The translations under genes and the position numbers were made by a program. The notes under the pieces are model-generated. The model was not told the DNA's origin. It saw nothing but the letters and a program-made list of their open reading frames with translations, and made no database searches. Source: Escherichia coli (GTDB lineage Bacteria > Pseudomonadota > Gammaproteobacteria > Enterobacterales > Enterobacteriaceae). From it: a DNA stretch of 64,000 bases. The stretch's first letter is position 1. The number at the start of each line of letters is the position of its first letter. The stretch is taken from the NCBI RefSeq assembly GCF_003018235.1, contig NZ_CP027437.1; one strand, written 5' to 3'. Positions 1-17,371 of the stretch are shown in pieces.

Positions 1-158
1 ATTTGTTCTACAATACCATATGACGCCCGATATTACGCCATACATAGAATATGACTACCTTGACCGTCAGGGTGTTTACAACGGCAGAGATAATTTATCG
101 GAAAACAGTTATCGCATTGGTGTGTCATTTAAACTGTAGTAGACAGGAGACAGTCACA

Positions 159-1265
159 ATGAATAAAACAATAACGGCGCTTGCTATCATAATGGCTTCA
201 TTTGCCGCAAACGCGTCTGTATTACCGGAAACTCCTGTGCCATTTAAAAGTGGTACCGGAGCAATTGATAACGACACTGTCTACATTGGTTTAGGTAGCG
301 CAGGTACAGCATGGTACAAGCTGGATACACAGGCCAAAGATAAAAAATGGACAGCGTTAGCTGCATTCCCTGGTGGGCCGAGAGATCAAGCAACCTCTGC
401 ATTTATTGATGGTAATCTGTATGTGTTTGGCGGCATTGGCAAAAACAGCGAGGGCTTGACTCAGGTATTTAATGACGTACACAAATACAACCCCAAAACC
501 AATAGCTGGGTTAAATTGATGTCGCACGCGCCGATGGGCATGGCGGGCCATGTGACTTTTGTACACAACGGCAAGGCTTATGTTACTGGCGGTGTTAACC
601 AGAATATCTTCAATGGCTATTTTGAAGATCTCAACGAGGCTGGAAAAGATTCAACCGCTATAGATAAAATCAACGCCCACTATTTTGACAAAAAAGCAGA
701 AGATTATTTCTTCAATAAGTTTCTGTTGTCTTTTGATCCCTCAACACAGCAATGGAGTTACGCTGGCGAATCTCCCTGGTACGGAACGGCTGGTGCGGCG
801 GTTGTGAATAAAGGTGATAAAACCTGGCTTATTAATGGCGAAGCCAAACCAGGATTGCGAACGGATGCCGTATTTGAACTTGATTTCACCGGTAATAATT
901 TAAAATGGAATAAGCTTGCTCCCGTCTCATCACCAGATGGCGTCGCTGGCGGTTTTGCAGGCATGAGCAATGACTCACTGATATTTGCCGGAGGGGCCGG
1001 ATTCAAAGGGTCACGGGAAAATTACCAAAACGGTAAGAACTATGCGCATGAAGGCCTGAAAAAATCATATAGCACTGATATTCATCTTTGGCATAACGGG
1101 AAATGGGATAAATCTGGTGAATTATCGCAAGGTCGGGCCTACGGAGTATCATTGCCCTGGAATAATAGTTTATTAATTATTGGCGGTGAAACTGCAGGCG
1201 GCAAAGCGGTGACGGATTCAGTTTTAATTTCTGTGAAGGATAATAAAGTCACAGTACAAAACTAA
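159..1265 (+). CDS. nanM: N-acetylneuraminate epimerase (Kelch-repeat, YjhT/NanM)
   Basis: ORF translation from MNKTITALAIIMASFAANA (signal peptide) matches NanM along its length; SD aggaga about 9 nt upstream of ATG at 159; the ORF-track start at 51 is an upstream extension. Confidence 0.9.
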   Translation: MNKTITALAIIMASFAANASVLPETPVPFKSGTGAIDNDTVYIGLGSAGTAWYKLDTQAKDKKWTALAAFPGGPRDQATSAFIDGNLYVFGGIGKNSEGLTQVFNDVHKYNPKTNSWVKLMSHAPMGMAGHVTFVHNGKAYVTGGVNQNIFNGYFEDLNEAGKDSTAIDKINAHYFDKKAEDYFFNKFLLSFDPSTQQWSYAGESPWYGTAGAAVVNKGDKTWLINGEAKPGLRTDAVFELDFTGNNLKWNKLAPVSSPDGVAGGFAGMSNDSLIFAGGAGFKGSRENYQNGKNYAHEGLKKSYSTDIHLWHNGKWDKSGELSQGRAYGVSLPWNNSLLIIGGETAGGKAVTDSVLISVKDNKVTVQN

Positions 1266-1329
1266 CGCTTCAGGGTCCCAGTAAAGGGGCCCTGCTATCA
1301 ATTTGTCATTTGTATTACGCGAAAATTAT

Positions 1330-2310
1330 ATGAACGCAATAATATCGCCCGATTATTACTATGTTCTTACCGTTGCTGGTCAGTCTAATGCCATGGCGTA
1401 TGGCGAAGGACTGCCATTACCGGACAGGGAAGATGCGCCTCATCCCAGAATTAAACAATTAGCGAGATTTGCGCATACGCATCCCGGAGGCCCGTCATGT
1501 CACTTTAACGACATTATTCCACTGACTCACTGCCCACACGATGTTCAGGATATGCAGGGTTATCACCATCCTCTGGCAACGAATCATCAAACACAGTACG
1601 GCACCGTTGGCCAGGCACTGCATATTGCACGGAAATTACTGCCCTTTATTCCTGATAACGCAGGGGTTCTCATCGTTCCGTGTTGCCGTGGCGGATCGGC
1701 TTTTACCGCGGGCAGCGAAGGGAAATATTCAGAACGGCACGGAGCCAGCCATGATGCTTGTCGTTGGGGAACGGATACTCCGCTATACCAGGATTTAGTC
1801 AGCAGAACGCGAGCCGCACTGGCAAAAAATCCGCAGAACAAATTCCTCGGCGTATGCTGGATGCAAGGCGAATTTGACTTAATGACCAGTGACTACGCGT
1901 CACACCCTCAACACTTTAATCATATGGTTGAAGCCTTTCGTAGGGAGCTAAAACAATACCATTCTCAGCTTAATAATATTACTGACGCACCGTGGTTTTG
2001 CGGCGATACCACCTGGTACTGGAAAGAAAATTTCCCTCATGCGTATGAAGCTATTTATGGCAATTATCAAAATAATGTTTTAGCCAATATTATTTTCGTC
2101 GACTTCCAGCAACAAGGTGCAAGAGGACTGACGAACGCGCCTGATGAAGATCCAGACGATTTAAGCACGGGATATTACGGTTCAGCGTACCGGTCACCGG
2201 AGAACTGGACGACGGCACTGCGAAGCAGTCATTTCAGCGCGGCAGCCCGTCGGGGGATTATTTCTGACAGGTTTGTAGAAGCAATTTTGCAGTTTTGGCG
2301 CGAAAGGTGA
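1330..2310 (+). CDS. nanS: 9-O-acetyl-N-acetylneuraminate esterase
   Basis: Translation from MNAIISPDYYYVLTVAGQSNA matches NanS (YjhS); follows nanM in the same orientation as in the nanCMS operon. Confidence 0.88.
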   Translation: MNAIISPDYYYVLTVAGQSNAMAYGEGLPLPDREDAPHPRIKQLARFAHTHPGGPSCHFNDIIPLTHCPHDVQDMQGYHHPLATNHQTQYGTVGQALHIARKLLPFIPDNAGVLIVPCCRGGSAFTAGSEGKYSERHGASHDACRWGTDTPLYQDLVSRTRAALAKNPQNKFLGVCWMQGEFDLMTSDYASHPQHFNHMVEAFRRELKQYHSQLNNITDAPWFCGDTTWYWKENFPHAYEAIYGNYQNNVLANIIFVDFQQQGARGLTNAPDEDPDDLSTGYYGSAYRSPENWTTALRSSHFSAAARRGIISDRFVEAILQFWRER

Positions 2311-2317
2311 GCGTTCA

Positions 2318-2518
2318 TTAATTTGATTTATTTGCATCCATTAGCGCTTTTAACTGCTCCGGCGTAAACGGTGGTTTGCGTCGGTGCAACATCGCATGGC
2401 AATTAGGGCACACAGGAAGCAAATCATTAACTGGATCCAGCTGGTAATCCTCTTTAATGGCTGAAAGCGGCACCAGGTGATGCACATTAAGCAATTTCAG
2501 AACCGCATGCTCATACAT
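2318..2518 (-). pseudogene. Short HNH-endonuclease-like ORF (66 aa), probably a truncated remnant
   Basis: Translation carries HH..P....N....CPNCH..H spacing typical of HNH nuclease cores but is far shorter than standalone HNH enzymes. Confidence 0.35.
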
Positions 2519-2577
2519 ATTTCCCCCTAAGTTTGCTCACTGCCTTTAATTTATGTCACAGGCAATGTAATTCACCT

Positions 2578-2649
2578 GAAGCTCATCTTGAATCTGTCCT
2601 TCTACTTAGTCATTACCCTACTGGCACAACCGACCTCAAGATGAGCTTC
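2578..2649. repeat. 14-bp perfect inverted repeat (gaagctcatcttga / tcaagatgagcttc) with 44-bp spacer
   Basis: Read directly from sequence, arms at 2578-2591 and 2636-2649; lies just 3-prime of the minus-strand gene ending at 2656. Confidence 0.6.
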
Positions 2650-2655
2650 TTACTT

Positions 2656-3264
2656 TTAACGATGTATCAGAACAATCTTGCGCCGGGAGAATAGCGTTTC
2701 CGCAGACAGCTGGAATTTATATTCCGCGGCCTTCAGCTTTCGCGATTTAAGCATTTTCATCGTGATACCCCTTATTTTCCCTGACTCAACCTGTCTCTTG
2801 ATTTCGCCGGTGCTCAGCATGAGCTGCTTTTGCAAAATCGACAGCAGGCTGACCTGAAACGAACGGGAAATCCTGACGCTAACCTTGACCCATTTGCCGG
2901 GAGAAAGGCTGGCTAACCACTGCTCCTGAATGCGAAAATCAGGCCGACCCGATAGCTCTGCGTTGTTCCGCTTCAGCATCGCGATATCACAGGAAAAATG
3001 TTGAACCGTGGCTGCATCGTTGCTCATCAGCCGGTTATGAAGTTCGCGGTCAATTTTGCTGACGTGCAGGCGCGAAAATAGGGAGATATTCCAGGTGTAA
3101 TCACAGTGTGTGCATTTATAGATACTCCACACGTCCAGCACCTTCTTTTGCGAATTAATCCGAAATGCACCTGATGGCGTGAAGTCCCGTTTAATGTTGC
3201 ATGAAGGGCATCGCTTCGCAATGCGCTGATACCCCACGGGCGTGACGGTCCATGTAACTTTCAT
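2656..3264 (-). CDS. Hypothetical protein with N-terminal CxxC...CxxC zinc ribbon and basic C-terminal region (202 aa)
   Basis: Long ORF with two CxxC pairs (CPSC, CTHC) and a K/R-rich C-terminus; no confident family assignment. Confidence 0.5.
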   Translation of the reverse strand: MKVTWTVTPVGYQRIAKRCPSCNIKRDFTPSGAFRINSQKKVLDVWSIYKCTHCDYTWNISLFSRLHVSKIDRELHNRLMSNDAATVQHFSCDIAMLKRNNAELSGRPDFRIQEQWLASLSPGKWVKVSVRISRSFQVSLLSILQKQLMLSTGEIKRQVESGKIRGITMKMLKSRKLKAAEYKFQLSAETLFSRRKIVLIHR

Positions 3265-3559
3265 AACCTACCTTTTTTAACCCATACAAAACCGGATCCG
3301 TACTGAACGGACCATGGATGTTTATGTATGAAAAATATTTAAGAGATATTTTTCAGAGGGTTAAAAAAAGATTTCCAACTATGCAATCCTGTCGGTGAGC
3401 AAAGAGATATAGCGAGACTATCAAAACGGCAATTATTGGGTATATGAGTTCAATCAATATTCATGATGGTTATGGCTTGTTCTATTGATCTGACACATTA
3501 AACACGGCGCATTAATTTTGTATGTTTTATGAACAACCCAACAACAAAAGGAGCGCGAT

Positions 3560-3811
3560 ATGACACAGCACGAACGGTTTTGTCAGGCCTGCGGAATGCC
3601 GATGTCCGCACCTGATGCGCAGGGGAGTAGCGATAAATACTGTGCATACTGCAGCGATAGCAACGGCAATCTTAAACCCTGGGAAGAGGCGGTATCAGGC
3701 TTGGCCAGCTTCCTTGATTCCTGGCAAAAAGTCGGTCCAGAAGAAGCACAGAAGCGTGCAAAACGTTATCTGACGGCAATGCCTGCCTGGGCTCATAAAG
3801 CGGACGAGTGA
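3560..3811 (+). CDS. Small zinc-ribbon domain protein (83 aa)
   Basis: CQAC...CAYC motif; strong SD aaaggag 8 nt upstream of ATG. Confidence 0.5.
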   Translation: MTQHERFCQACGMPMSAPDAQGSSDKYCAYCSDSNGNLKPWEEAVSGLASFLDSWQKVGPEEAQKRAKRYLTAMPAWAHKADE

Positions 3812-3875
3812 ATAACAAAGTCAGGGTGATTTAGGCAGTCTATCTTCACTCCGCTGATTCCATTAAGGAGAGCCG

Positions 3876-4268
3876 ATGTTTTCTCACATTATGCTTGGAA
3901 CCAACAACCTGCCACGCGCCATTGCATTCTACGATCCGTTGATGGATATGCTGGGGTATCCCCGCGGCGGCAGGAAGAGGAGATCGCATGGTGGGGCGTT
4001 TTCAACGGTAATAACACTACGGCACTGGGTATCAGTAGGCCATTTGATAAACAGGTTGCCACGACCCGAAATGGAGTGATGGTCGCCCTGATTGCGCGTT
4101 CTGCCGAACACATCCAGCAAGTTTCATGTGCTAGCTTTAAATCACGGTGGCACTGACGAGGGAGCACCTGGCCAGCGTCCGCATTACGGCGAAGGGTTCT
4201 ACAGCGCTTACGTCAGAGACACCGATGGCAACAAGCTGGCTTACGTTTATTACACCGCACAATCCTGA
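3876..4268 (+). pseudogene. VOC/glyoxalase-family gene disrupted by frameshifts
   Basis: N-terminus MFSHIMLGTNNLPRAIAFYDPLMDMLGY in frame 1 (SD aaggaga upstream); the rest of a VOC-like protein (ALGISRPFDKQVATTRNGVMVAL... and GGTDEGAPGQRPHYGEGFYSAYVRDTDGNKLAYVYY) continues in the other two frames, implying at least two frameshifts. Confidence 0.5.
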
Positions 4269-4512
4269 GAACGATAAAGCGGGGGCCTCAGCGCCCCCAC
4301 CTGAAACTAAACCGATCCCGCAGATGTCAATGAGCGTTGAACGAGTTGATAAATGCCGAGATGTCTGACTGTTTTTACGCCAGAACTCCATGGTGTGACA
4401 ACCATACACATACTCCCTTCTTGACACCTTTAAACCATTTAACCGCATGCCTCTGTCTGCCCTGCAGGGACGGCTGATGCCTGTGTGTTGTCTGGCGGTA
4501 AGGAACAATACT

Positions 4513-4674
4513 ATGTACGCAAAATCCTTTATCGCTCTCGACGGGAATGGTCGTCTGACCGGTGCCCGTACTGCGCAGACCGCCCCTTACGATCGTTATA
4601 CCTGCCACCTCTGCGGTAGCGTGCTGCAATACCATCCTGAATACATCACCGAACGCCCGTGCTTTGAACAGTAA
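4513..4674 (+). CDS. Small hypothetical ORF (53 aa, MYAKSFIALDGNGRL...)
   Basis: ATG preceded by aagga-like SD; contains CHLCGS motif; function unknown, could be a remnant. Confidence 0.25.
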   Translation: MYAKSFIALDGNGRLTGARTAQTAPYDRYTCHLCGSVLQYHPEYITERPCFEQ

Positions 4675-5266
4675 CCAACACACTGACAGAGGGCGGCGAA
4701 AATGCTTTATGCAAATCTTGATGCAAAGGCAGCCAGACGAATTCGTAAGTTACGCTTTTACGTGGCAGATACTCAAAGCAGACTGGCATTGTAGCGACGA
4801 TTGCCACGGTGAACGCTATTGTATGGCATGTAGTACCTGAGACTTCAGCCGCCCAGTAGATATAGCATCATGAAAAAACTGAAATGCTTTCTTGCCAACA
4901 ACTCACTGAGCTAGTATGCCTCCACCGATGTAACAATTAGAGCAAGCGTCAAAGTGCGAAACTGCCCTCACGTAGCTGCAAGTTAACACCAGGAAATCCT
5001 GGTTCAAACACGACCAGCTCTATGTTAGCGGCAAGCAATCGTTGAACTAAACGCATATGCAGCCGGAGATGAAAGTTAGGAAAAAAGCAGAGGCTGATAA
5101 GAATTATGCACGTTGAGCTGGGATCGTAATACCCCACTTAAAATGTACAAGGGGAGTAGTCTAATGATGTTAAATACGAACCTTCAGTATTGTTCATTCA
5201 CCAATTTTCCCATATTCTCTCATCATTAATATTCTCTGCCGAATTTTATAGGGCTAACTCGCTGAA

Positions 5267-5470
5267 ATGAATGACAAAGCTTTAACCTTGAAAGATGTGG
5301 TGGCTTACTTAAAGTTGGCAGAAAAAACAGCGTATAGGTTGACTAGCGAAGGCAAATTGCCGGGATTTAAGGTTGAAGGCTCATGACGCTTCAAACGAGA
5401 GGATTTAGATATGTGGATTGAAGGTCAGAAGACTCAAAGCTACCCGAGTATCACAAAATCCAATCGTGGT
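5267..5470 (+). pseudogene. Excisionase/AlpA-like HTH DNA-binding protein interrupted by in-frame TGA
   Basis: Translation MNDKALTLKDVVAYLKLAEKTAYRLTSEGKLPGFKVEGS*RFKREDLDMWIEGQ; the stop at 5384-5386 sits where this family has the conserved Trp of the GSWRF motif. Confidence 0.5.
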
Positions 5471-5666
5471 TGATCAAGTGGATAAACATGAAAAGTCGGT
5501 AGCCCTCAAAGGCCACTTGCCACATGCAGTGAAGCAAGCCGTTGTGCAAGCTCTACTGAAAGAAGGTGATATCGCCCGAACGTTGCTCAAGGATCCACAA
5601 GTTATGGCAAGTTATGTTGAGCTGATTTTCGACATGATGAAGCAGAATAAAAATATGAATATCTAA
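5418..5666 (+). CDS. Small hypothetical ORF immediately upstream of the ATPase gene (non-ATG start in ORF track)
   Basis: ORF-track call only; start is TTG/GTG with no convincing SD; overlaps the 3-prime end of the HTH pseudogene. Confidence 0.2.
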   Translation: MKVRRLKATRVSQNPIVVDQVDKHEKSVALKGHLPHAVKQAVVQALLKEGDIARTLLKDPQVMASYVELIFDMMKQNKNMNI

Positions 5667-5708
5667 AAGATTTTGGGCTATCTATTACGTTTTAAAATGA
5701 GATAAATA

Positions 5709-8246
5709 ATGATAAATGACCATGAAGAACTAGAACTTGCTAAAGCTCAGGCAAAAGAAATATGGAAGATCCTTGATTATGTTCGAGGAGCATCACCTAT
5801 ATCTAATTATCGCTCATTAGCGTATTCAATCTTCTTCGTACGCTATCTTCAATCCAATACAGGTCAGCATTTTGAGGCAGAAAGGTTCGACTCTTTTAAT
5901 GTCATCGCCCAGTATTCCTACGATCTTGTAAACTATGCCGTTCAACTTGGATTGATTCATAGCGACGTATCTAAATTCTTAATTTATTATTTAGAAAACA
6001 CACTCCGTTCATTTGTCAATATTGATGAGTCTTTTGTTCGTTATGCAATTAGAGATGGTCTACTCAATAAAACCCCTGCAATAGCGTCGCTTTCTTTATC
6101 AGAACTGGATTTACTTTTTGCCGAGAATGAAGGTAAGTCAGGAGGTGAGTTTTATACCCCTAGAGACGTCAACTTATTGGTTAAAATATTAGGATTGAGT
6201 TATCAACCAAAGTCAATATGTGACCCATTTGCAGGTGCTGGAAACACAGCATTTCCTTTTGCCAATACTGGTATTGAAAAAGTTAGGATTGATACTCAAG
6301 AAATTAATAGAGATGCTTACTTTAAACTAGTAATAAGTAGAGTCATCAGGAAAATAGAAGGTCGAGACTATTTCGGCGATTCCCTATCACAACCATTATA
6401 TCAAGAAAATAAATATGATCTGATAGTTTCTTTCCCACCTTTTGGCATGAAAATTCCTAAAGCCACTCGAAATAATATTTACTATAAAACAAGTAATAAG
6501 TGGCTGGATATTACTGAAATCTTGCCAGAAAGTAGAAGTGATTGGTTTATAACATTATCAATGCTTCCAGCCCTTTCTGAGGGGGGTAAGATACTAGTAG
6601 GTATGTCACTTGGGGCTTTGACAAGAGCAGGCTCTGAGGCAAAGGTTCGTGAGTATTTAGTCTCTCGCGGAATTATCGAACAAGTAATTCTTTTACCTAA
6701 AAATATTTATTACTCTACGGCTATCTCAACTGTACTTCTTGTCCTCAACTCAGGAACAAGTAACATAAATAACAGAAGTATTAAATTTGTAGATGCTTCA
6801 CTGTTTTACGAGCCTGCCCGTGGTCGAAACACCCTCACAACAAAAAATATAAATGAGATCGTAGAGGCTTGTCATAAAGATGGCCGATTTAGTATTAGTT
6901 CATCTCATACCCAAATAGCAAACAGAGACTTTAATTTAGATCCGTCTCTTTATGTACGTAAAGATCTCAAAATCAGTGAGGTTTCTTTAAAAAATTTTAG
7001 AGGATACTCTGACTTTAAAGTTTCGATACATCCTTCTTTAAATGTATTGGTTGGTGAGAACGGCGTCGGGAAAACTTCGATATTAGAAGCATTAGCATGT
7101 GGCCTTGGTCCTTTCCTTACTGCTATGCCTGATGCTAAAGGAAAACTGATAAAAAAATCAGATATCCATATAAGTTCAAAAGGAATCGCAAATTATGCTC
7201 GAATATCGATTGAAACAACATCAAGTTTAAGTTGGGATCTTGTGGCAAAGGGGGTTGATGTTTCCGAGCCCCCTAAGATAGGAACATCAGCATTAACTAG
7301 CTACGCTACTCATCTTGTAGATAGTCAGTCTGAATATCCACTCATTGCTTATTATGGGACTAACCGTGCTCTTACTTCTACCAGTTCTAAAGTTGCAATA
7401 AATCCATTCGAGAAAGAAAATCGTGGGGAAGGTTATGACTTTGCTTTAGATGCTAAAGTTAACTACGGCATCTTAAAGAACTGGTTTTCAAAAATAGAGG
7501 TTGATGAGCTTCGAAAACGTGATGAACTAAAAGACCATAAATTCATTCATCCGGCTAAGAGACTTGTTTCAGAGGCTGTTTACCAGATTGTTGATCGAGC
7601 TACATGCTTGGAGTTCGACAAAAATAGTAACGATGTTATGGTTCATTGGAAAAATGAGCAGGGAGAGTGCGTAAAGCTTACATTGGAACAACTAAGTGAA
7701 GGGTATAGAAATATGGTATCCCTGACCATTGACCTAGTGAGGCGTGCTTATTTACTTAATCCTACCAAACCGAAACCGCTAACAGTTAATGGGATCGTTT
7801 TAATTGATGAAATTGAACTTCACTTGCACCCTAGATGGCAGCAAAAGATTTTAAATGATCTTACTAAGCTGTTTAAGAATATTCAGTTTATTGTCACGAC
7901 ACATAGTCCTCAAGTCTTAACAACAATCAAAGCCGATTGTATCCGTATTGTTTCCGTCAATGCTAACGAAGCAAAATTAGTGACAGGAACTACTACTTAC
8001 GGTTCTGAAAGCTCAAGAATGTTGGAAGATGTTTTAGGTGGTAACAATCGCGCCCAACATCTTGATATTGTTAAAAAACTAAACCGTTATACAGAGTTAG
8101 TAGAGGCCGACAAATGGGATACCGATGAGGCATTAGAACTCAAAAAAGAGTTATATAAATGGGGTGGTCAGACAGAAGACGAGCTTCAAAAATTAGAAAC
8201 TGATATTCGAATTCGCGAGTTCGAGCGTGGCAATGAAAAAGATTAA
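5709..8246 (+). CDS. Fusion protein: N-terminal gamma-class N6-adenine methyltransferase-like domain plus C-terminal ABC-type ATPase (Septu PtuA-like)
   Basis: MTase-like motifs in order X-I-IV: EFYTPRDV (about aa 147), DPFAGAGN (about aa 172), SFPPFG (about aa 240). ATPase motifs: Walker A GENGVGKTS (about aa 449), Walker B VLIDEIELHLHP (about aa 695), TTHSP (about aa 730). AT-rich coding sequence. Confidence 0.75.
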   Translation: MINDHEELELAKAQAKEIWKILDYVRGASPISNYRSLAYSIFFVRYLQSNTGQHFEAERFDSFNVIAQYSYDLVNYAVQLGLIHSDVSKFLIYYLENTLRSFVNIDESFVRYAIRDGLLNKTPAIASLSLSELDLLFAENEGKSGGEFYTPRDVNLLVKILGLSYQPKSICDPFAGAGNTAFPFANTGIEKVRIDTQEINRDAYFKLVISRVIRKIEGRDYFGDSLSQPLYQENKYDLIVSFPPFGMKIPKATRNNIYYKTSNKWLDITEILPESRSDWFITLSMLPALSEGGKILVGMSLGALTRAGSEAKVREYLVSRGIIEQVILLPKNIYYSTAISTVLLVLNSGTSNINNRSIKFVDASLFYEPARGRNTLTTKNINEIVEACHKDGRFSISSSHTQIANRDFNLDPSLYVRKDLKISEVSLKNFRGYSDFKVSIHPSLNVLVGENGVGKTSILEALACGLGPFLTAMPDAKGKLIKKSDIHISSKGIANYARISIETTSSLSWDLVAKGVDVSEPPKIGTSALTSYATHLVDSQSEYPLIAYYGTNRALTSTSSKVAINPFEKENRGEGYDFALDAKVNYGILKNWFSKIEVDELRKRDELKDHKFIHPAKRLVSEAVYQIVDRATCLEFDKNSNDVMVHWKNEQGECVKLTLEQLSEGYRNMVSLTIDLVRRAYLLNPTKPKPLTVNGIVLIDEIELHLHPRWQQKILNDLTKLFKNIQFIVTTHSPQVLTTIKADCIRIVSVNANEAKLVTGTTTYGSESSRMLEDVLGGNNRAQHLDIVKKLNRYTELVEADKWDTDEALELKKELYKWGGQTEDELQKLETDIRIREFERGNEKD

Positions 8247-9021
8247 TAAGCTAGATGAGCCAAATCGGCTTGGTGTGTTCAAGGCTACTCATCCTAATGC
8301 TTTGTGGGAGAGGGATAAAAACTCAATTGAAGAGGCTTTCCGTTGTTGCATTGCCAGATATCAAGAAACTCTACAACAATTACGTACGGACCAAGGTAAT
8401 TTATGTGCATATTGTGAACAGGATTTAATGTCTGGAACTAATGGGGCATTAGATGACTGCCGTATTGAGCATTTTCATCCGAAATCTAAACGTGAACAGG
8501 GAGAACCTAATTGGGCTTTGGAATGGAGCAATTTGTTAGTTGTTTGCTGTGGCGGAAATCAAAGTAAAGTTGTTAATCCTGGGCAAAGATTTGATGCTGA
8601 TCCCAAAAATTACTCTTGCGATGTACCAAAGAGTGACAAAATTTTAGATACCATTATATTAAATCCACTTAATTTACCTGAATTAAATATCTGGAAGTTT
8701 CATCGTTCTTCGGGGCAAATTTCCGTAAATGAAGATTCCTGTTTAGAATTTGGTATAAGTGTTGAAATGGCACACCAAACAATTAAAGAATTGAATTTAA
8801 ATTCCCCTCGATTAATTAGATTTCGAAAGGCTATTCTAAATAATCTCAACATTTTAATAACAGAAAGGCTGAAGAAGGGACAAACGGTAGAGCAAGCTGT
8901 TAGATTTATTGCCATATCACTCTTTAGAAAAAATGGAGCAGGTGATTGGCCCTCTTTTTTTAGTGCAACACGATATTATTTAGGTCAGCAGGCTGAGCTT
9001 GTTTTAGCCCAACCTATTTAA
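8227..9021 (+). CDS. HNH nuclease (Septu PtuB-like)
   Basis: Motif CAYCEQD...DDCRIEHFHPKS...WSNLLVVCCGGN; start (GTG 8227 or ATG 8233) overlaps the stop of the upstream ATPase gene, indicating an operon. Confidence 0.7.
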   Translation: MAMKKINKLDEPNRLGVFKATHPNALWERDKNSIEEAFRCCIARYQETLQQLRTDQGNLCAYCEQDLMSGTNGALDDCRIEHFHPKSKREQGEPNWALEWSNLLVVCCGGNQSKVVNPGQRFDADPKNYSCDVPKSDKILDTIILNPLNLPELNIWKFHRSSGQISVNEDSCLEFGISVEMAHQTIKELNLNSPRLIRFRKAILNNLNILITERLKKGQTVEQAVRFIAISLFRKNGAGDWPSFFSATRYYLGQQAELVLAQPI

Positions 9022-9040
9022 CATACTTTCAACTAGTTAG

Positions 9041-9063
9041 AGAGGCTGCTTTTGGCAGCCTCT
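9041..9063. terminator. Hairpin between convergent operons (agaggctgcttttggcagcctct)
   Basis: Perfect stem agaggctgc/gcagcctct with T-rich loop, located between the stop at 9021 (+) and the stop at 9082 (-). Confidence 0.4.
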
Positions 9064-9081
9064 TGCAGAGTGCAGAATCGA

Positions 9082-10515
9082 CTACAGGGGCGATGCTAGC
9101 TCAGAGAACCAAGCGTGAACTGATCTGTAAAATGTGCTGATTGACCAAAACTCACTGCATGCAGCAACTAACAGAATGACCACTAAGAGGATCACTACAG
9201 TAGAAGTCATTCTTTCCACACGGCAGTATGATCCCATCGCATCTTTTACAGGTTGTCTAGCCAGTTCCTGATAATCCAGCTCATCCAGAAATCCGTATAA
9301 TTTAGTTCTCCAGGTGGTTCTAACTCTTTCAAGTAATGAAATTGTTTGCCTATTAATATAGACAGACATTCCATAGGAAATAACTATATAAACCGCGATA
9401 GCACAAAAAACCAAAGCGTAAATATTTTGCAAACCAACTGATTTTACTGCATCCAGACTGTAGCGAATAACCAAGACACTAATTACAAGAGCCATATCTT
9501 TCCATAAGGAAGAGGACAAATCTCGGGATTGCTGAATGATCTTTTGTGTATCTTCAGCCAGCGTTTTCCGCAAATCACCCAAGGATTTCATAGTATCTTT
9601 ACCACCAGTCCTGATATGGGCCTTATACATTAACCGTGCAGACTCCAAAGCTGATGAGAGTCGAAGCATCACTCCCTCACAAAAGTTCAGGTCTGAAGGC
9701 CACTCTCTAGCCAGCTCGCTGGACAAAAACGTATGTTTCAGCTCAGTTTCATTCCCCTCTAGAAAAATCCACTTTGCCGCTTCCTGGATAATATCAAAAG
9801 CAGGTAACGCTGCCGTCTCATCGCCGAATGCTATTTTTCTGGGAGGCTTTCCCGCAAGCCCCACCATCATTTCGTCAGCAAAAAAAAGTTCATTTGCAAA
9901 ACATTTCAGCAACTCTCGGCATCCTAGCAATTTCCATATCTTGATTGCTTCATCAGTCTTCTCACTACAAGTTTCAAGTATCCAAGGGGCAATGGCATCT
10001 GGAGGAAGAAAAGTTGTTGAATAACATTTGATGATACTTTTTGTTACTGAAGGCTTAGTGATAGCTGTTGCATCACCAGCACTCACCGGCTGTATCTCCT
10101 TCCATGGATGCACATACCAACTTATTGTCTGAAAGCCTTCAGTAATAAACAGCCCATAAATATGTTTGTACCGACAGAGTTTGCTATCTTGAAGTAAAAA
10201 AGTGCGCCATCCTTCTAAGGTAAAAAGCCTCAGTATCCCCGGAATTTCATTATAAGTGATGGTAATGTAGTGCTTCTGCCCTGGGACCCCCTCTCTCGGA
10301 TGAATAACATCTCTGCTCTCATCGATAAAAACGATCTTGAGATCTTCCGCATGTACATCCACTATTTCTCCCCATAAATCAAGGGATTCACTATCCATTG
10401 TGGCGGAAATAAAAAGCTTATGGATAGACACCTGCTGGTCCTCTGTGATCACAAGGTCAGATAAATGTCGTGAGTGGCATATAGCCTTACCGATTTTTTC
10501 CAATATCGATATCAT
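9082..10515 (-). CDS. Hypothetical protein with C-terminal transmembrane helices (477 aa)
   Basis: Long ORF; C-terminal hydrophobic segments (IYALVFCAIAVYIVISYGMSVYI and STVVILLVVILLVAACSEFWSI); 29-nt overlap with the upstream gene; no recognisable catalytic motif. Confidence 0.55.
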   Translation of the reverse strand: MISILEKIGKAICHSRHLSDLVITEDQQVSIHKLFISATMDSESLDLWGEIVDVHAEDLKIVFIDESRDVIHPREGVPGQKHYITITYNEIPGILRLFTLEGWRTFLLQDSKLCRYKHIYGLFITEGFQTISWYVHPWKEIQPVSAGDATAITKPSVTKSIIKCYSTTFLPPDAIAPWILETCSEKTDEAIKIWKLLGCRELLKCFANELFFADEMMVGLAGKPPRKIAFGDETAALPAFDIIQEAAKWIFLEGNETELKHTFLSSELAREWPSDLNFCEGVMLRLSSALESARLMYKAHIRTGGKDTMKSLGDLRKTLAEDTQKIIQQSRDLSSSLWKDMALVISVLVIRYSLDAVKSVGLQNIYALVFCAIAVYIVISYGMSVYINRQTISLLERVRTTWRTKLYGFLDELDYQELARQPVKDAMGSYCRVERMTSTVVILLVVILLVAACSEFWSISTFYRSVHAWFSELASPL

Positions 10516-11548
10516 CTGTTACCAATCCTGCAGTCACAATTACAATTCGTTTTCGCCCGTCTTCCATATTTTCTACTTCTGGTGCATTGTCTTCATCGTA
10601 GATAATGATTACATCTTCCAATGTTTCCAGTTTTCTCTTCCGGGGCTTCTGAATGTTATCGGGAATGATGCGGAAAGATTCACCTGAAATTCCTAAATCC
10701 TTTATTTTACGAAAAAAATACTTAACCAGAGGGTGTTCTTCCTCCAAAGGACCAAAAATCTGGGTCAACAATGGCAGTGCTTCATCAGTATTAAAATCCT
10801 GTTCGCCATGGCGTAAAGTTTCATAAATTTTGTTTACTCCGCTGCGCTTGATCTCTTCAGGTAGTAAGTTTCGATGCTTTTTATATACATCTTTTAATAC
10901 AGTAACTAGCTTATCGCTGAGCTGAGTTGGGTCATTGACGCGCTTAACCTGTAGAAATCGTTCAAAATAGACAGAGATGTTAGTACGTTTGCTGCGATCT
11001 CGTACGACAACTAATCCGCCCGGCAAATCTTCATTCAGCCGTACCAGTGCGATTTTCTGCATGGCTTCGGCTTTTTTAACGAAACTTTCGCGAAAGCGTT
11101 CGAGTTTAGGTACCTGAAACTCATCTCCTTCAACATCCAGCACATAACGGACTACATCTTCATTGTCATACTTAATCAACGCATACAGTTTCTCATCGTT
11201 GAGTGTATGAAGTTCAAAAAGGAAAAAAACGCCCATACTGGCATTCTTGGTATGGTGGTGAGACTGAAAATCGCTTGCCAATAAGGAGGATTGCTCAGTA
11301 AAGCAGCCGATATCGGTGTCTGCATGTTCCCTGATGATCCTCAGGATTCGCTCTGTATTTGACAACTCCTTAAAATGAAACATATTGCCACTAACTGCAG
11401 ATTTGATACGTTCCAGAAAGAAATCAACATGCTCCGGAGGGGAAATTTCGCTGAGTAAAACAGGGACTTCCAACTCACCGCCAACCACATGAAAAATCAT
11501 CCTTTTTATTGATAATGCATTGATTTCTTCATCCGTTAAAAAACTCAT
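10487..11548 (-). CDS. Hypothetical protein (353 aa), weak resemblance to NdpA/YejK-type nucleoid-associated proteins
   Basis: Long ORF first in a two-gene operon; size and scattered sequence patterns recall YejK, but this is an unverified impression. Confidence 0.5.
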   Translation of the reverse strand: MSFLTDEEINALSIKRMIFHVVGGELEVPVLLSEISPPEHVDFFLERIKSAVSGNMFHFKELSNTERILRIIREHADTDIGCFTEQSSLLASDFQSHHHTKNASMGVFFLFELHTLNDEKLYALIKYDNEDVVRYVLDVEGDEFQVPKLERFRESFVKKAEAMQKIALVRLNEDLPGGLVVVRDRSKRTNISVYFERFLQVKRVNDPTQLSDKLVTVLKDVYKKHRNLLPEEIKRSGVNKIYETLRHGEQDFNTDEALPLLTQIFGPLEEEHPLVKYFFRKIKDLGISGESFRIIPDNIQKPRKRKLETLEDVIIIYDEDNAPEVENMEDGRKRIVIVTAGLVTDDIDIGKNR

Positions 11549-11744
11549 TTTTATTTCTCAATATAGTGTTTATATTTACTACCGTGAGCCATCTTACCTA
11601 AGCGTAGAACGTGGCGGAAAACACGATAACATTATTGCATAGCTTACGGCGTAACTTATCCTCGCCCCAGACAGAATAAACGTCAAAATAAAATAATGAA
11701 AATATGATCGAGACAGCATTAGCTGCCCCGCTTTCTTAGACTTT

Positions 11745-12998
11745 TTACATTATTAGGGCAAAATCAAACGGACTCACCCCCTTCTCCCGATTCGCATCCA
11801 GATAATTTGCCCACCACTGCAGCATCAACCTACGCTCCCCAAGATGTTCCGCCTTATGGATGTATGCCGCCCGCACAGAGCTACGCTCCTGATGGCTCAT
11901 CTGCCGCTCCACTGCATTCCTCGACCACAATCCTGATTCAATAAGTGAACTACAGGCCATCGTCCTGAAACCATGCCCACAGACTTCCGTTTTGGTGTCA
12001 TAGCCCATAACTCGCAAAGCCTTGTTCACCGTATTCTCACTCATCGGCTTATGCGGATCGTGATCGCCCACAAAAATCAGCTCTCGATTTCCATTCATGC
12101 TTTTGATCTTTTCCAAAATAGCTAAGGCCTGCCGCGATAAGGGTACAAGATGGGGAGTTCGCATCTTCGAACCACGCTGAGAATGTTTAACACCGTCCAA
12201 CGGTTCACGCTCACCGGGGATCGTCCACATGGCCGTTTCAAAATCCACTTCTGACCAACGGGCAAAGCGCAGTTCGCTTGAACGGATGAAAACTAACAAA
12301 GTGAGTTCGACAGCCAGTCGAGTTAACGGCCTGCCGGAGTAATGATCAATGCGGTGAAGTAATTCAGGTATGCGGTTAAGCTCCAGAGCCGCACGATGCT
12401 GTCTTTTAGCAGTAGCAACCGCACCGGTAATCTCTTGCGCGGGGTTGTAGTCGATTAAGCCGCTCTGAACGGCAAAGCGCATAATCGCGGTAGTTCGCTG
12501 CTGTAAACGGGCGGCGACTTCAAGACGTCCGGATGACTCCACCGCTTTAATGGGTACAAGAAGATCCCGAGTCTTAAGCTCTGCAATGTTCCGCTTACCG
12601 ATAGCAGCAAAGAGATTATCTTCTAGGCTTTTCAATACACGAGCACTATGCGATGCAGACCACTTCTGATTACTGGCATGCCAGTCTCTGACGACCACTT
12701 CAAACGTTATCGCCTCTTGCTCCTGTTCTACCTTAACCGCTTTCTTGTTTTCACTGGGATCGACGCCGTTCGCTAAAAGCTTACGCGCTTCGTCTCGCCG
12801 CGATCGAGCATCAGCTAACGAAACTTCAGGATACTTCCCTAGCGCCAGCATCTTCTCTTTACCACCGAAACGATAACGAAGCCGCCAGTATTTGGAGCCG
12901 TTAGGGTGAACCAGCAAAACCATGCCTTCACCATCAGTAAGTTTATAGGCTTTTGCTTCAGGCTTTGCCGAACGAACCTTCACATCACTCAGAGCCAT
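11745..12998 (-). CDS. P4-type tyrosine integrase (IntB-like), apparently intact
   Basis: Translation MALSDVKVRSAKPEAKAYKLTDGEGMVLLVHPNGSKYWRLRYRFGGKEK... matches P4/CP4-like integrases and ends with a tyrosine-recombinase C-terminus; adjacent to tRNA-Leu 3-prime end. Confidence 0.85.
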   Translation of the reverse strand: MALSDVKVRSAKPEAKAYKLTDGEGMVLLVHPNGSKYWRLRYRFGGKEKMLALGKYPEVSLADARSRRDEARKLLANGVDPSENKKAVKVEQEQEAITFEVVVRDWHASNQKWSASHSARVLKSLEDNLFAAIGKRNIAELKTRDLLVPIKAVESSGRLEVAARLQQRTTAIMRFAVQSGLIDYNPAQEITGAVATAKRQHRAALELNRIPELLHRIDHYSGRPLTRLAVELTLLVFIRSSELRFARWSEVDFETAMWTIPGEREPLDGVKHSQRGSKMRTPHLVPLSRQALAILEKIKSMNGNRELIFVGDHDPHKPMSENTVNKALRVMGYDTKTEVCGHGFRTMACSSLIESGLWSRNAVERQMSHQERSSVRAAYIHKAEHLGERRLMLQWWANYLDANREKGVSPFDFALIM

Positions 12999-13196
12999 GA
13001 TGAATATCCTTTCAAGGGTTCTGTGTGGGTACAAACATTATCGAACCGGGATATACCCGCAGTTGTACCCGCATCAGTAAGTTGATGTAGATTGAATCAG
13101 GTTGACTTAGGTTGAGTGAAAAAGCGAGGAAAGCCTTGCGGATACTGGATTTCAGGCATAAAAAAAGACCTCAGTTGAGGTCTATTTACATACTTA

Positions 13197-13281
13197 TGGT
13201 GCCGAAGGCCGGACTCGAACCGGCACGTATTTCTACGGTTGATTTTGAATCAACTGCGTCTACCGATTTCGCCACTTCGGC
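13197..13281 (-). tRNA. leuX: tRNA-Leu (CAA)
   Basis: Reverse complement reads GCCGAAGTGGCGAAATCGGTAGACGCAGTTGATTCAAAATCAACCGTAGAAATACGTGCCGGTTCGAGTCCGGCCTTCGGCACCA, with cloverleaf features and a long variable arm. Confidence 0.9.
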
Positions 13282-13476: not shown

Positions 13477-14496
13477 ATGTCGATGATAAAAAGCTATGCT
13501 GCAAAAGAAGCGGGCGGCGAACTGGAAGTTTATGAGTACGATCCCGGTGAACTGAAGCCACAAGATGTTGAAGTGCAGGTGGATTACTGCGGGATCTGTC
13601 ATTCCGATCTGTCAATGATCGATAACGAATGGGGATTTTCACAATATCCACTGGTTGCCGGGCATGAGGTGATTGGTCGCGTAGTGGCGCTCGGGAGTGC
13701 CGCGCAGGATAAAGGTTTGCAGGTCGGTCAGCGTGTCGGGATTGGCTGGACGGCACGCAGCTGCGGGCATTGCGATGCCTGTATTAGCGGTAATCAGATC
13801 AACTGCGAGCAAGGTGCGGTGCCGACGATTATGAATCGCGGTGGCTTTGCCGAGAAGTTGCGTGCGGACTGGCAATGGGTGATTCCACTGCCAGAAAATA
13901 TCGACATTGAATCTGCCGGACCGCTGTTGTGCGGCGGTATCACGGTCTTTAAACCGCTGTTGATGCACCATATCACTGCCACCAGCCGCGTTGGGGTAAT
14001 TGGTATTGGCGGGCTGGGGCATATAGCTATAAAACTTCTGCACGCAATGGGATGCGAGGTGACAGCCTTTAGTTCTAATCCGGCGAAAGAGCAGGAAGTG
14101 CTGGCGATGGGTGCCGATAAAGTGGTGAATAGCCGCGATCCACAGGCACTGAAAGCACTGGCGGGGCAGTTTGATCTCATTATCAACACCGTCAACGTCA
14201 GCCTCGACTGGCAGCCTTATTTTGAGGCGCTGACGTATGGCGGTAATTTCCACACCGTCGGTGCGGTTCTCACGCCGTTGCCGGTTCCGGCCTTTACGCT
14301 GATTGCGGGCGATCGCAGTGTCTCTGGCTCTGCTACCGGCACGCCCTATGAGTTGCGTAAGCTGATGCGCTTTGCCGCCCGCAGCAAGGTTGCGCCGACC
14401 ACCGAACTGTTCCCGATGTCGAAAATTAACGACGCCATCCAGCATGTGCGCGACGGTAAGGCGTGTTACCGCGTGGTTCTGAAAGCCGACTTCTGA
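13477..14496 (+). CDS. ahr: NADPH-dependent aldehyde reductase (YjgB)
   Basis: Translation from [22 protein letters not shown]... with zinc-ADH motif GHEVIGRV. Confidence 0.9.
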
Positions 14497-14625
14497 TCCC
14501 TTTGCCGGGTGCCTGTCGCCCGGCGTTTAAATCTCTTTGGAAGGCGTCTCGCAATCTGCTGAATTTAGCGGTGAAGAGTGCGCAGCCGTTGCCTATACTC
14601 CAGGCAGGAAACTGGAGGATATCTC

Positions 14626-16128
14626 ATGAGCGAACCCCTGTTAATTGCCCGCACGTCGGACACAGAACTGTTTTTATTGCCGGGAATGGCGAATCGTCAC
14701 GGGCTGATTACTGGCGCAACGGGGACGGGTAAAACCGTTACGCTGCAAAAGCTGGCGGAGTCATTGTCGGAAATCGGTGTTCCGGTGTTTATGGCCGATG
14801 TGAAAGGTGATTTAACGGGAGTTGCGGAGGAAGGTACATCTTCGGAAAAACTGCTCGCAAGGCTTAAAAATATCGGCGTAAATGACTGGCAACCTCATGC
14901 TAATCCGGTGGTGGTGTGGGATATCTTTGGCGAGAAAGGCCACCCAGTGCGGGCGACGGTTTCGGATTTGGGGCCTCTGTTGCTGGCGCGACTGTTGAAT
15001 CTCAACGATGTGCAATCTGGCGTGCTGAATATTATCTTCCGCATTGCGGACGATCAGGGATTGTTGCTGCTCGACTTTAAAGATTTGCGGGCGATTACCC
15101 AGTACATCGGCGATAACGCCAAATCCTTCCAGAATCAGTACGGTAATATCAGTAGCGCATCGGTTGGTGCCATCCAGCGCGGGCTGTTATCGCTGGAACA
15201 GCAAGGCGCGGCGCACTTTTTTGGTGAGCCGATGCTGGATATCAAAGACTGGATGCGTACCGATGCCAACGGTAAAGGCGTTATCAATATCCTCAGCGCC
15301 GAGAAGCTTTATCAGATGCCGAAACTGTACGCCGCCAGCCTGCTGTGGATGCTTTCAGAGTTATATGAACAATTGCCTGAAGCGGGCGATCTGGAGAAAC
15401 CAAAACTGGTGTTTTTCTTCGACGAAGCACATCTGCTGTTTAACGATGCGCCACAGGTACTGCTGGATAAGATTGAGCAGGTGATAAGGCTTATTCGCTC
15501 AAAAGGCGTGGGCGTCTGGTTCGTTTCGCAAAACCCGTCAGATATTCCGGATAATGTGCTCGGACAGCTAGGTAATCGCGTTCAACACGCTTTGCGGGCT
15601 TTTACGCCCAAAGATCAGAAAGCAGTAAAAGCTGCGGCGCAAACCATGCGGGCCAATCCGGCGTTTGATACCGAAAAGGCAATCCAGGAACTGGGGATCG
15701 GCGAGGCGTTAATCTCGTTTCTCGATGCGAAAGGAAGCCCTTCAGTGGTGGAACGGGCGATGGTGATTGCCCCCTGTTCACGAATGGGGCCGGTGACGGA
15801 AGATGAGCGTAATGGCTTGATTAATCACTCCCCGGTGTATGGCAAGTACGAGGATGACGTGGACCGGGAATCCGCCTATGAGATGTTGCAAAAAGGCTTT
15901 CAGGCCAGTACCGAGCAGCAAAATAATCCTCCCGCGAAAGGGAAAGAGGTGGCGGTGGATGACGGTATTCTTGGTGGATTGAAGGATATTTTGTTTGGCA
16001 CTACCGGACCACGCGGCGGGAAGAAAGATGGTGTGGTGCAAACAATGGCGAAAAGCGCCGCCCGCCAGGTGACGAATCAGATTGTGCGTGGGATGTTGGG
16101 GAGTTTGCTGGGGGGGAGAAAAAGGTAA
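14626..16128 (+). CDS. yjgR: DUF853-family P-loop NTPase YjgR
   Basis: Translation from [12 protein letters not shown]... with Walker A GATGTGKT. Confidence 0.88.
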
Positions 16129-16288
16129 GTCAGGTGCGATTTGTCTTTGCCTGATGCGACGCTGGCGCGCTTTATCATGCCTAAACTACTGCAATATATT
16201 GAATTTTCATGATTTTTCAGGCATGAACGAAGCACACTTTGCTAACAATAATAAAGGGAGCTTTCGCTCCCTTTATTCGTTCATCAGG

Positions 16289-17371
16289 TTACGATTTTCT
16301 CATTAACAGCCACAGGCTGATTAAGAAGAAGCTGGCGCTTGGCAACAGTGCGCCGATGATCGGCGGGATGCCATAAACCAACGTCAGCGGGCCGAAGATC
16401 TGGTCCAGTACGTAGAAGACAAAACCGAAGCTAATACCAGTGACCACACGCACGCCCATCGGTACGCTACGCAGTGGGCCAAAGATGAACGACAGCGCCA
16501 TCAGCATCATCACCGCCACGGATAGCGGCTGGAAGATTTTGCTCCACATGTTGAGCTGATAACGTCCGGCATCCTGACCGCTCGACTTCAGATACTTCAC
16601 ATAGTTGTGCAAACCGCTGATAGAGAGTGCATCCGGGTCCAGCGCCACCACGCCCAGTTTGTCTGGCGTGAGGTTGGTTTTCCAGGTGCCGCTCACCGTC
16701 TGCGAACCGGTGATCTGTTTCGGATTGGTCAAATCAGATTCATCAACCTGCGACAGACGCCAGACTTTATGTTCCGGGTCAAACTTCGCGGTAGCGGCAT
16801 AGCGTACGGATTGCAGACGACGATTCTCGTTAAAGGCATAAATACTGATGCCACCTAACTCTTCGTCACCTTTAACCCGCTCAATGTAGACGAAGTTGTT
16901 GCCATCTTTCGCCCATAAACCTTGCTGGGTAGAGAGCAACGAGCCGCCGTACATCGCCTGCGCACGGTAGTTACGCGCCATCTGCTCGCCCTGCGGCGCG
17001 ACCCATTCACCAATCGCCATCGTCAGCAAGACCAGCGGAATGGCGGTTTTCATCACCGACAGCGCAACCTGCATACGGGTAAAACCAGAAGCCTGCATCA
17101 CCACCAGTTCGCTGCGCTGCGCCAGCATCCCAAGACCAAGCAACGCCCCAAGCAGAGCCGCCATCGGGAAGAAGATTTGCACATCTTTCGGCACGCTCAG
17201 CAAGGTATACATTCCTGCGCCTAACGCGTCGTAACTCCCCTGCCCGGCTTTTTTCAGCTGATCGACAAATTTGATAATGCCCGACAGCGACACCAGCATG
17301 AACAGCGTCATCATGATGGTGGTGAAAATAGTTTTACCGATATAGCGGTCAAGTACGCCAAAAGGTTGCAT
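16289..17371 (-). CDS. lptG: LPS export ABC permease LptG
   Basis: Translation MQPFGVLDRYIGKTIF...; overlaps lptF stop. Confidence 0.92.
   Translation of the reverse strand: MQPFGVLDRYIGKTIFTTIMMTLFMLVSLSGIIKFVDQLKKAGQGSYDALGAGMYTLLSVPKDVQIFFPMAALLGALLGLGMLAQRSELVVMQASGFTRMQVALSVMKTAIPLVLLTMAIGEWVAPQGEQMARNYRAQAMYGGSLLSTQQGLWAKDGNNFVYIERVKGDEELGGISIYAFNENRRLQSVRYAATAKFDPEHKVWRLSQVDESDLTNPKQITGSQTVSGTWKTNLTPDKLGVVALDPDALSISGLHNYVKYLKSSGQDAGRYQLNMWSKIFQPLSVAVMMLMALSFIFGPLRSVPMGVRVVTGISFGFVFYVLDQIFGPLTLVYGIPPIIGALLPSASFFLISLWLLMRKS

Follow-up and report, generated by a model that had tools for sequence, protein, structure and literature searches.

A probable pseudogene of a small VOC-superfamily protein, interrupted by two single-base indels, in the leuX variable region of Escherichia coli

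The window, a stretch of 64,000 nucleotides from E. coli (contig NZ_CP027437.1 of assembly GCF_003018235.1), contains a variable region between the nan genes and the integrase and tRNA-Leu(CAA) leuX (11745-13281), and within this region lies a frameshifted gene of the VOC/glyoxalase superfamily whose 393 nt equal the length of its intact homologues (Table 1). An intact Zn_ribbon_2 gene is located immediately 5' of it, and this gene was always found in that position, the two genes forming a pair in Salmonella, Enterobacter, ERZ945490 and E. coli. The block that holds the pair (3542-4483, extending to 4616 in Enterobacter) was 83-86% conserved in Salmonella, Enterobacter and other E. coli. The GC content was 50-51% between 3500 and 5000 and 36-43% in the cargo between about 5000 and 11500. 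The genes located 3' of the pair varied by genome and included pAgo with a nuclease, a TIR protein, an AAA ATPase or BREX; sgcX occupies this position in K-12 and an MTase-PtuA/PtuB Septu system occupies it in the window. Because of its 50-51% GC, its conservation across genera and the differing contents on its 3' side, we read the Zn-ribbon/VOC pair from these sequences as a conserved cassette that borders a variable defence slot and lies outside the low-GC cargo of recent acquisition. A search for the distal att site of the leuX island over positions 1-12900, covering copies of the leuX 3' end (25 nt with at most three mismatches), exact matches of 13 nt or longer and general direct repeats, gave no hit, and a promoter and terminator scan of 3300-4600 gave no signal above shuffled expectation.

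Table 1. Location of the VOC-family pseudogene, its segments and lesions, and the surrounding genes in the window.
Feature	Position	Strand	Remarks
nanM	51-1265	+	
nanS-like gene	1303-2310	+	
HNH remnant	2318-2518	-	
DUF1062 gene	2656-3264	-	
Zn_ribbon_2 gene	3560-3811	+	intact, 83 aa; Pfam PF12674, E = 2.9e-10
Shine-Dalgarno AAGGAG	3865-3870	+	5 nt upstream of the ATG at 3876; direct sequence reading
Whole VOC-family pseudogene	3876-4268	+	393 nt; 130 codons plus stop after repair
Segment 1, codons 1-33, frame 0	3876-3974	+	28/33 identical to Salmonella P0004
Lesion 1, 1-nt deletion, T of codon 34 (AAT, Asn)	between 3976 and 3977	+	AGGAATGAGGA becomes AGGAAGAGGA
Segment 2, codons 35-82, readable only in frame +2	3977-4120	+	42/48 identical to P0004
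First premature stop TGA, frame 0	4077-4079	+	ORF list, frame translations
Second premature stop TGA, frame 0	4089-4091	+	ORF list, frame translations
Lesion 2, 1-nt insertion within AAG	4119-4121	+	CAG CAA (G) TTT vs intact CAGCAATTT or CAGCAGCTT; restores frame 0
Segment 3, codons 83-130 and TGA stop, frame 0 again	4122-4268	+	aa 84-130 (4125-4265): 40/47 identical to P0004
Frameshifted DUF7828 'zinc ribbon' gene	about 4513-4840	+	
HTH gene	5267-5386	+	
MTase-PtuA fusion	5709-8246	+	
PtuB	8227-9021	+	
Uncharacterised gene	9082-10515	-	
NA37 nucleoid-associated gene	10487-11548	-	
Tyrosine integrase	11745-13034	-	
tRNA-Leu(CAA) leuX	13197-13281	-	
Core genes ahr and yjgR	13435 onward	+	

The reading frames of the locus were mapped on the intact Salmonella protein P0004 by aligning each frame of the window separately with the Smith-Waterman algorithm. 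Per-frame alignment was used instead of tblastn, which, when intact proteins were searched against the region, returned one gapped frame-0 alignment that masked the segment in frame +2. Frame 0 begins with MFSHIMLGTNNLPRAIAFYDPLMDMLGYPRGGR, continues into missense residues and terminates at the first TGA, and its product from 3876 is a 67-aa stub in which 33 native residues are followed by 34 missense ones. The middle of the gene makes sense only in frame +2, where it reads EEIAWWGVFNGNNTTALGISRPFDKQVATTRNGVMVALIARSAEHIQQ; this frame contained zero stop codons across 3977-4120, and no match to P0004 was detected for the segment in the other frames. The final third is again in frame 0 and ends with FHVLALNHGGTDEGAPGQRPHYGEGFYSAYVRDTDGNKLAYVYYTAQS before the stop codon. 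Homology to the full length of the protein is spread over more than one frame and premature stops are present in the starting frame, as in a frameshifted pseudogene. The original prediction of a good ribosome-binding site ahead of the start at 3876, of a glyoxalase/VOC-like gene and of at least two frameshifts was borne out, and the number of frameshifts is exactly two. Its expectation that the protein continues in both of the other frames was not: the frames used are 0, +2 and 0 again, two in all, and frame +1 of 3876-4268 gave no match to P0004.

Both lesions could be placed by DNA alignment with three intact genes (Salmonella, L008; Enterobacter, L012; and ERZ945490, L013) and several E. 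coli copies, and the alignment of the frame segments with an intact VOC homologue that had been suggested with the original prediction set them at the same two sites. The gene carries exactly two 1-nt indels, one deletion and one insertion, so that its length is compensated. At the first site the intact genes read AGG AAT GAG and the window reads AGGAA-GAG (AGGAAGAGG at 3972-3980); a lone T is missing between AA and G, and the site is not a homopolymer. At the second site the window reads CAG CAA G TTT CAT (CAGCAAGTTTC at 4115-4125), ERZ945490 reads CAG CAA TTT CAC and the others read CAG CAG CTT CAC. This site adjoins short runs only (AA and TTT, 2-3 nt), and its repair by dropping either the A or the G yields the same protein sequence, QQFH, as in the intact protein P0007. 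With the T added and one base removed, the gene becomes an open reading frame of 130 codons, the same length as the intact genes.

The repaired translation identified the probable nature of the ancestral gene. A total of 451 proteins in the protein collection matched it at E <= 1e-10, and the best matches were uninterrupted 130-aa proteins with 85-88% identity (E down to 5e-72), named VOC family proteins, from Salmonella enterica, Klebsiella oxytoca and Enterobacter hormaechei, among others. Pfam PF00903 (Glyoxalase/Bleomycin resistance/Dioxygenase) matched the repaired 130/131-aa translation with 22.4 bits against a cut-off of 20.6, a weak but full-length match that spans protein residues 3-123 and positions 3-120 of the 121 in the profile, and homologues of the repaired protein in the database carry a precomputed PF00903 match. 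An AlphaFold2 model built on 48 homologues had a mean pLDDT of 90.6 and consisted of two tandem beta-alpha-beta-beta-beta modules, the first made up of E4-8, H12-26, E30-33, E37-40 and E50-54 and the second of E69-73, H77-89, E93-100, E108-114 and E120-126. A Foldseek search of the PDB with this model returned VOC-fold proteins only, with 4qb5 at the top (TM 0.83, E = 3e-13). The profile match and the predicted fold support membership of the repaired protein in the VOC superfamily.

A more precise functional placement was not supported. An NCBIfam search of the repaired protein gave no family or equivalog match, and for this reason no functional subfamily was assigned; placement among the glyoxalase I, FosA or bleomycin-binding subfamilies is not supported. 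The closest proteins of known structure were 4qb5, a glyoxalase/bleomycin-resistance-family protein of Albidiferax ferrireducens (full-length sequence match, E = 2e-16; TM 0.83 to the model), and 4z04, a probable lactoylglutathione lyase of Brucella with glutathione bound (full-length match, E = 4e-11; TM 0.79). Both are 27-36% identical to the repaired protein and are structural-genomics entries without demonstrated activity, and hence no function was taken from them. GloA (1f9z), FosA (1lqk and 5v3d), the mitomycin-binding protein MRD (1kll) and TnmS1 (5umq) share the fold and the size class of the repaired protein at 12-23% identity in the Foldseek alignments.

The nearest relatives are intact 130-aa VOC proteins of Salmonella enterica (P0004), Enterobacter hormaechei (P0121, recorded as 'MULTISPECIES: VOC family protein [Enterobacteriaceae]'), Klebsiella oxytoca (P0003) and ERZ945490 (P0158), which share 80-88% amino acid identity with the repaired protein, have the same length and have the same Zn_ribbon_2 gene immediately upstream; P0158 also has the DUF1062 and YbaK upstream context in common. 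All four are encoded by single uninterrupted ORFs, whereas the window copy has lost the codon-34 T and gained one base after codon 82. With these two indels, and with frame 0 ending at 4077-4079, the intact frame of a functional VOC member is not present in the window.

The gene has a counterpart that is already annotated. RefSeq (PGAP) lists pseudogene G6Z93_RS20020 of E. coli PapM-32-1 (NZ_CP049204.1, 4220312-4220704) as 'VOC family protein' with the note 'frameshifted', and this gene is the base-for-base counterpart of 3876-4268: it occupies the same locus, has the same 393 nt and the same two indels, and is 98.7% identical. The VOC pseudogene is in this sense already known, since the same frameshifted gene is annotated in a near-identical E. 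coli genome. The neighbours that PapM-32-1 has in common with the window are the DUF1062 gene, the Zn-ribbon gene, the frameshifted zinc-ribbon pseudogene, the HTH gene, the N-6 methylase and an HNH gene. PapM-32-1 differs upstream, where a retron RT, YbaK and others are found instead of nanS and the HNH remnant, and by five substitutions in the gene itself.

It is very improbable that the gene is truly intact and that its frameshifts arose in sequencing or assembly, for example through homopolymer miscalls. The two indels are opposite in sign and leave the total at 393 nt, a pattern that might resemble a local misalignment artefact, and the second site touches the short runs AA and TTT. The runs there are only 2-3 nt long, however, and the first site is not in a homopolymer at all. 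Both indels are also present in PapM-32-1, a different strain as judged by the five substitutions in the gene, whose genome was built with Unicycler as a hybrid assembly from Illumina plus Nanopore reads (PMC7643976). Both are found as well in the Logan assembly of SRR30658444, which is identical to the window at 393/393 positions of the pseudogene and 99.956% identical, with zero gaps, to positions 1-9079. An exact look-up located the same 67-aa stub on three further contigs, namely the SRR30658444 Logan contig and two more. Sequencing error was rejected on these grounds, and the homopolymer errors named beforehand as a possible explanation are equally discounted. Since both indels recur in independent assemblies and neither site is a long homopolymer, they are real and heritable and do not stem from a single assembly.

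Two readings would keep the locus functional in spite of the indels, and both have very little in their favour. Programmed recoding, in which shifts of -1 near 3976 and +1 near 4120 would give a full-length VOC protein, would account for the open frame +2 in the middle segment, for the conserved length and for the complete 130 aa obtained when the gene is read with both shifts. However, in every intact orthologue the 130 codons lie in a single frame, and the shift is for this reason taken as a lineage-specific lesion and not as a conserved feature. An X XXY YYZ slippery heptamer is absent at GGC AGG AAG AGG AGA, CAG CAA GTT TCA offers no stop or rare-codon +1 site, and no frameshift element was found by an Rfam search of 3000-5600. 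Other E. coli copies of the gene have been killed by stops, truncations or an IS insertion, showing that the gene is not maintained. With neither junction slippery, single-frame homologues and no Rfam element, programmed ribosomal frameshifting was rejected and has almost no chance of being correct.

The second reading holds that the 67-aa ORF (3876-4079), which has a strong ribosome-binding site, was kept as a new small protein. The ribosome-binding site and the start codon are intact, and three other assemblies encode an identical 67-aa product. Those assemblies are near-identical to the window overall (99.96%), which makes the identity uninformative on selection, and PapM-32-1 has three amino acid changes in the out-of-frame tail. 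In the AlphaFold2 model, segment 1 of the gene accounts for the first two strands of the fold and the helix between them, and segment 2 covers strands 3-4 of module 1 as well as the first strand of module 2 and half of its helix. The stub is predicted to retain only beta1-alpha1-beta2, and the fold requires two full modules; on the model, the stub would probably be unable to fold as a VOC domain. Retention as a small protein is highly unlikely.

The preferred explanation, which we consider very probable, is that the locus is a vertically inherited, non-functional pseudogene whose intact form encoded a small VOC/glyoxalase-superfamily protein of 130 aa with a single domain, and that it was broken by two single-base mutations. 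The ancestral VOC gene would have formed a two-gene cassette with the upstream Zn_ribbon_2 gene and would have been destroyed by two independent single-base mutations. Loss of the T of codon 34 would put the ribosome out of frame past strand 2, with translation stopping at the TGA at 4077-4079, and the resulting 67-aa stub would be unable to form the paired beta-alpha-beta-beta-beta modules. The insertion at 4119-4121, whether it came later or earlier than the deletion, would bring the last 48 codons back into the original frame, and this restoration would be without consequence for expression because two stops intervene. Loss of function is the probable outcome, and neutral decay is its presumed cause.

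The extent of decay is small. Beyond the two indels, the ORF is clean. Of the 45 columns that are at least 90% conserved among 82 full-length homologues, two differ from the consensus in the repaired protein (Y4H and G65R) and 0-5 in intact orthologues. The dN/dS of the repaired gene against intact orthologues was 0.26-0.29 and that of intact orthologues against each other ranged from 0.20 to 0.48, a comparison that by itself does not show relaxed selection. Because of the few departures at conserved columns and a dN/dS within the intact range, inactivation is taken to be relatively recent; on the sequences at hand it would be recent when set against the time since this allele diverged from the intact ones, yet older than the separation of the window strain from PapM-32-1.

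The VOC gene of the window differs from that of PapM-32-1 by four non-synonymous changes and one synonymous change (omega about 1.2, which is weak at n = 5), and the adjacent 252-nt Zn-ribbon gene differs by no change at all and has an omega of about 0.10 against its orthologues. The contrast of 5/393 substitutions in the VOC gene vs. 0/252 in the Zn-ribbon gene involves counts too small for significance and is suggestive of neutral drift after inactivation. The original prediction regarded the broken gene as a sign of decay inside an island and of an old acquisition with eroding cargo. The first part holds in that the pseudogene lies in the leuX variable region and has decayed neighbours, the DUF7828 gene and the HNH remnant, but the gene belongs to the conserved cassette of 50-51% GC and not to the low-GC cargo. 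The second part gains no support from the sequence, in which the ORF is clean except for the two indels and its dN/dS falls within the range of the intact genes.

The gene was detected in other E. coli in a variety of damaged forms. In a survey of 5,426 complete RefSeq genomes of E. coli, a collection outside which an intact copy may occur in draft genomes, 1,770 had a match to the VOC gene, and PapM-32-1 was the only one with the window allele at full length. Strains 14EC033 and VTB96935v carry a full-length 84% allele with W39* (TGG to TAG), annotated as 'internal stop'. XJ23PTE1 has an 87% allele that is cut at about nt 302 and, as read from its sequence, has GTG instead of ATG and a TAA at codon 4; strains 744 and R2 have an 87% allele that matches up to the break point at about nt 302, as known from the extent of the match. 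ISEc31 is inserted after nt 82 of the VOC gene in CFSAN018748, and 19KM1766N has a more divergent allele with a TGA at codon 40.

The most frequent form was a short remnant. About 1,634 E. coli genomes, including K-12 MG1655, Nissle 1917 and EC958, retain the first 89 nt only, at 91% identity and beside sgcX, and the pseudogene flags of these remnants, checked in the two representatives K-12 MG1655 and strain 4/1-1, were 'internal stop; incomplete' in both. The K-12 MG1655 remnant (D8B36_RS23250, 'VOC family protein; internal stop; incomplete') is located between the yjhP/zinc-ribbon pseudogene and sgcX in the leuX (KpLE2) region. It is the orthologous 5' end (89 nt at 91%) with the same zinc-ribbon gene upstream and is likewise a pseudogene, but it was killed otherwise, by a stop at codon 19 and a deletion beyond about nt 117, and its zinc-ribbon partner is also dead in K-12. 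Among the complete E. coli genomes for which either the annotation or the sequence was inspected, none had an intact VOC orthologue. The paralogue WP_060627058.1 next to mdtM (in E. coli VTB96935v and also in Enterobacter) is a 393-nt gene of the same family with about 68% DNA identity; it differs in being at another locus, intact and without a zinc-ribbon partner.

Intact copies were frequent in Salmonella (321 index blocks) and Enterobacter (635 index blocks). The named members of the closest intact clusters came from Enterobacter, Klebsiella, Citrobacter, Pantoea, Lelliottia and Raoultella and not from E. coli, and truncated VOC fragments were also present in Klebsiella protein clusters. 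When one genome per species was scanned for a pattern across lesion 1 with an optional T, the single match was the intact form in Citrobacter amalonaticus, the pattern being too strict for a taxonomic survey. The comparisons support the view that the VOC gene is dispensable in E. coli and appears to have been killed repeatedly, by differing lesions, at this locus. The zinc-ribbon gene next to it is still conserved.

The repeated loss raises the question of whether it was neutral. The VOC gene may have been selected against in E. coli, or it may have suffered collateral damage from the repeated exchange of cargo at the adjoining 3' defence hotspot. In line with such a view, E. coli lineages carry at least five different lesions, the complete genomes inspected showed no intact orthologue, and intact copies are common in Salmonella and Enterobacter. 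At the cargo junction, several lesions take the form of 3' truncations or IS insertions (nt 82, 89 and about 302), and the cargo 3' of the cassette is different in every genome (pAgo, TIR, BREX, AAA ATPase and MTase-PtuA/PtuB). However, the lesions in the window are internal point indels and not junction damage, neutral decay of a dispensable gene would equally yield repeated independent loss, and the Klebsiella protein clusters also hold truncated fragments. A non-neutral loss is unlikely, and neutral decay remains the preferred cause.

A broader proposal concerns the cassette itself. The approximately 0.95-kb cassette (3542-4483) could be a conserved 'anchor' at the edge of an Enterobacteriaceae defence-island hotspot, and the recurrent death of the VOC gene in E. 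coli could be a by-product of cargo turnover there, or selected along with it, instead of simple neutral decay. We offer this only tentatively, as a minority possibility.

The locus is an ordinary dead gene, and the finding is of minor importance. The annotation is tidied, in that the locus is one pseudogene with two defined indels and not three short ORFs. The Zn-ribbon/VOC pair marks a recurrent junction beside swappable defence cargo near leuX, and it could be useful as a landmark of the hotspot.

Comparison of the gene pair formed by a Zn_ribbon_2 protein and the VOC-family pseudogene (window 3542-4483, to 4616) with loci L002, L004, L005, L008, L010, L012 and L013 revealed that its DNA is conserved among E. 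coli, Salmonella and Enterobacter at 83-86% identity. Directly 3' of this cassette, the gene content was different in each genome compared; the neighbors included a pAgo with a DpnII-MboI-like nuclease, a TIR protein, an AAA ATPase, BREX BrxABC, sgcX and the MTase-PtuA/PtuB genes of the window. As judged from these comparisons, the Zn_ribbon_2-VOC cassette looks like a fixed border of a defence-island hotspot. Both cassette genes were also present in E. coli K-12 MG1655 as dead remnants between yjhP and sgcX (L010, 2245-2617), where an internal stop interrupts the zinc-ribbon gene, and the VOC gene, reduced to about 117 nt, likewise contains one. The features detected around the cassette are compiled below.

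Features around the Zn_ribbon_2-VOC cassette (window coordinates unless a locus is named)
Feature	Coordinates	Strand	Length	Evidence
HNH endonuclease remnant	2318-2518	-	66 aa	PF01844, E = 4e-5
Second pseudogene, adjoining the VOC pseudogene	~4513-4840	+		DUF7828 match and ORFs
MTase-PtuA fusion	5709-8246	+	845 aa	PADLOC profiles
PtuB/HNH	8227-9021	+		PDLC00349, E = 2e-100
ORF	9082-10515	-	477 aa	
NA37-type nucleoid-associated protein	10487-11548	-	353 aa	PF04245, E = 1e-12
Tyrosine integrase adjoining tRNA-Leu(CAA) (leuX)	11745-13281	-		
Intact paralogous VOC gene	L002 1125-1517; L012 2317-2709		130 aa	~68% DNA identity

The cargo includes two overlapping genes (5709-9021, plus strand) that, by their profile matches, form a Septu defence pair with a methyltransferase fused at the N-terminus. 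The N-terminal part of the first gene product (aa ~137-418) is a type-I-like N6-adenine methyltransferase domain (PADLOC MTase_I, E ~1e-30), and aa 420-843 correspond to the Septu PtuA AAA ATPase (PDLC00278, E = 5e-106). RefSeq labels the first gene "N-6 DNA methylase" and the second "retron system putative HNH endonuclease." Two further genes in the low-GC cargo, the 477-aa ORF and the NA37-type gene, overlap each other in the interval between PtuB and the integrase; Pfam and PADLOC searches with the 477-aa ORF gave no match. A direct repeat of the 3' end of the leuX tRNA was not found in window 1-12900 (25 nt with at most three mismatches, or exact 13-mers), and the island is one without a recognizable distal att site inside the window.

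Decayed genes were detected on both sides of the cassette. The N-terminus of a "putative zinc ribbon protein" at 4513-4674 matched DUF7828 (PF25165, E = 1e-16), and the pseudogene carries on in a different frame (ORF 4562-4840); its equivalent in E. coli PapM-32-1 is flagged as "frameshifted" by PGAP. The HNH remnant abuts the end of a nanS-like gene and is annotated in E. coli CFSAN018748 as "incomplete, missing N-terminus."

The source strain's lineage appears to be sparsely represented among complete E. coli genomes. None of 5,426 such genomes matched the core stretch 14000-24000 (yjgR, lptFG, pepA, valS) at 99% or more, the top matches being 98.0-98.8%. The left 9 kb of the window matched a Logan contig from sequencing run SRR30658444 at 99.96%.

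In E. coli VTB96935v (L002) and Enterobacter (L012), the paralogous VOC gene immediately follows mdtM, which encodes an MFS transporter. The paralog lies upstream of the Zn-ribbon/VOC cassette at a distance of only about 3 kb, and thus some genomes contain two related VOC genes in one neighborhood.
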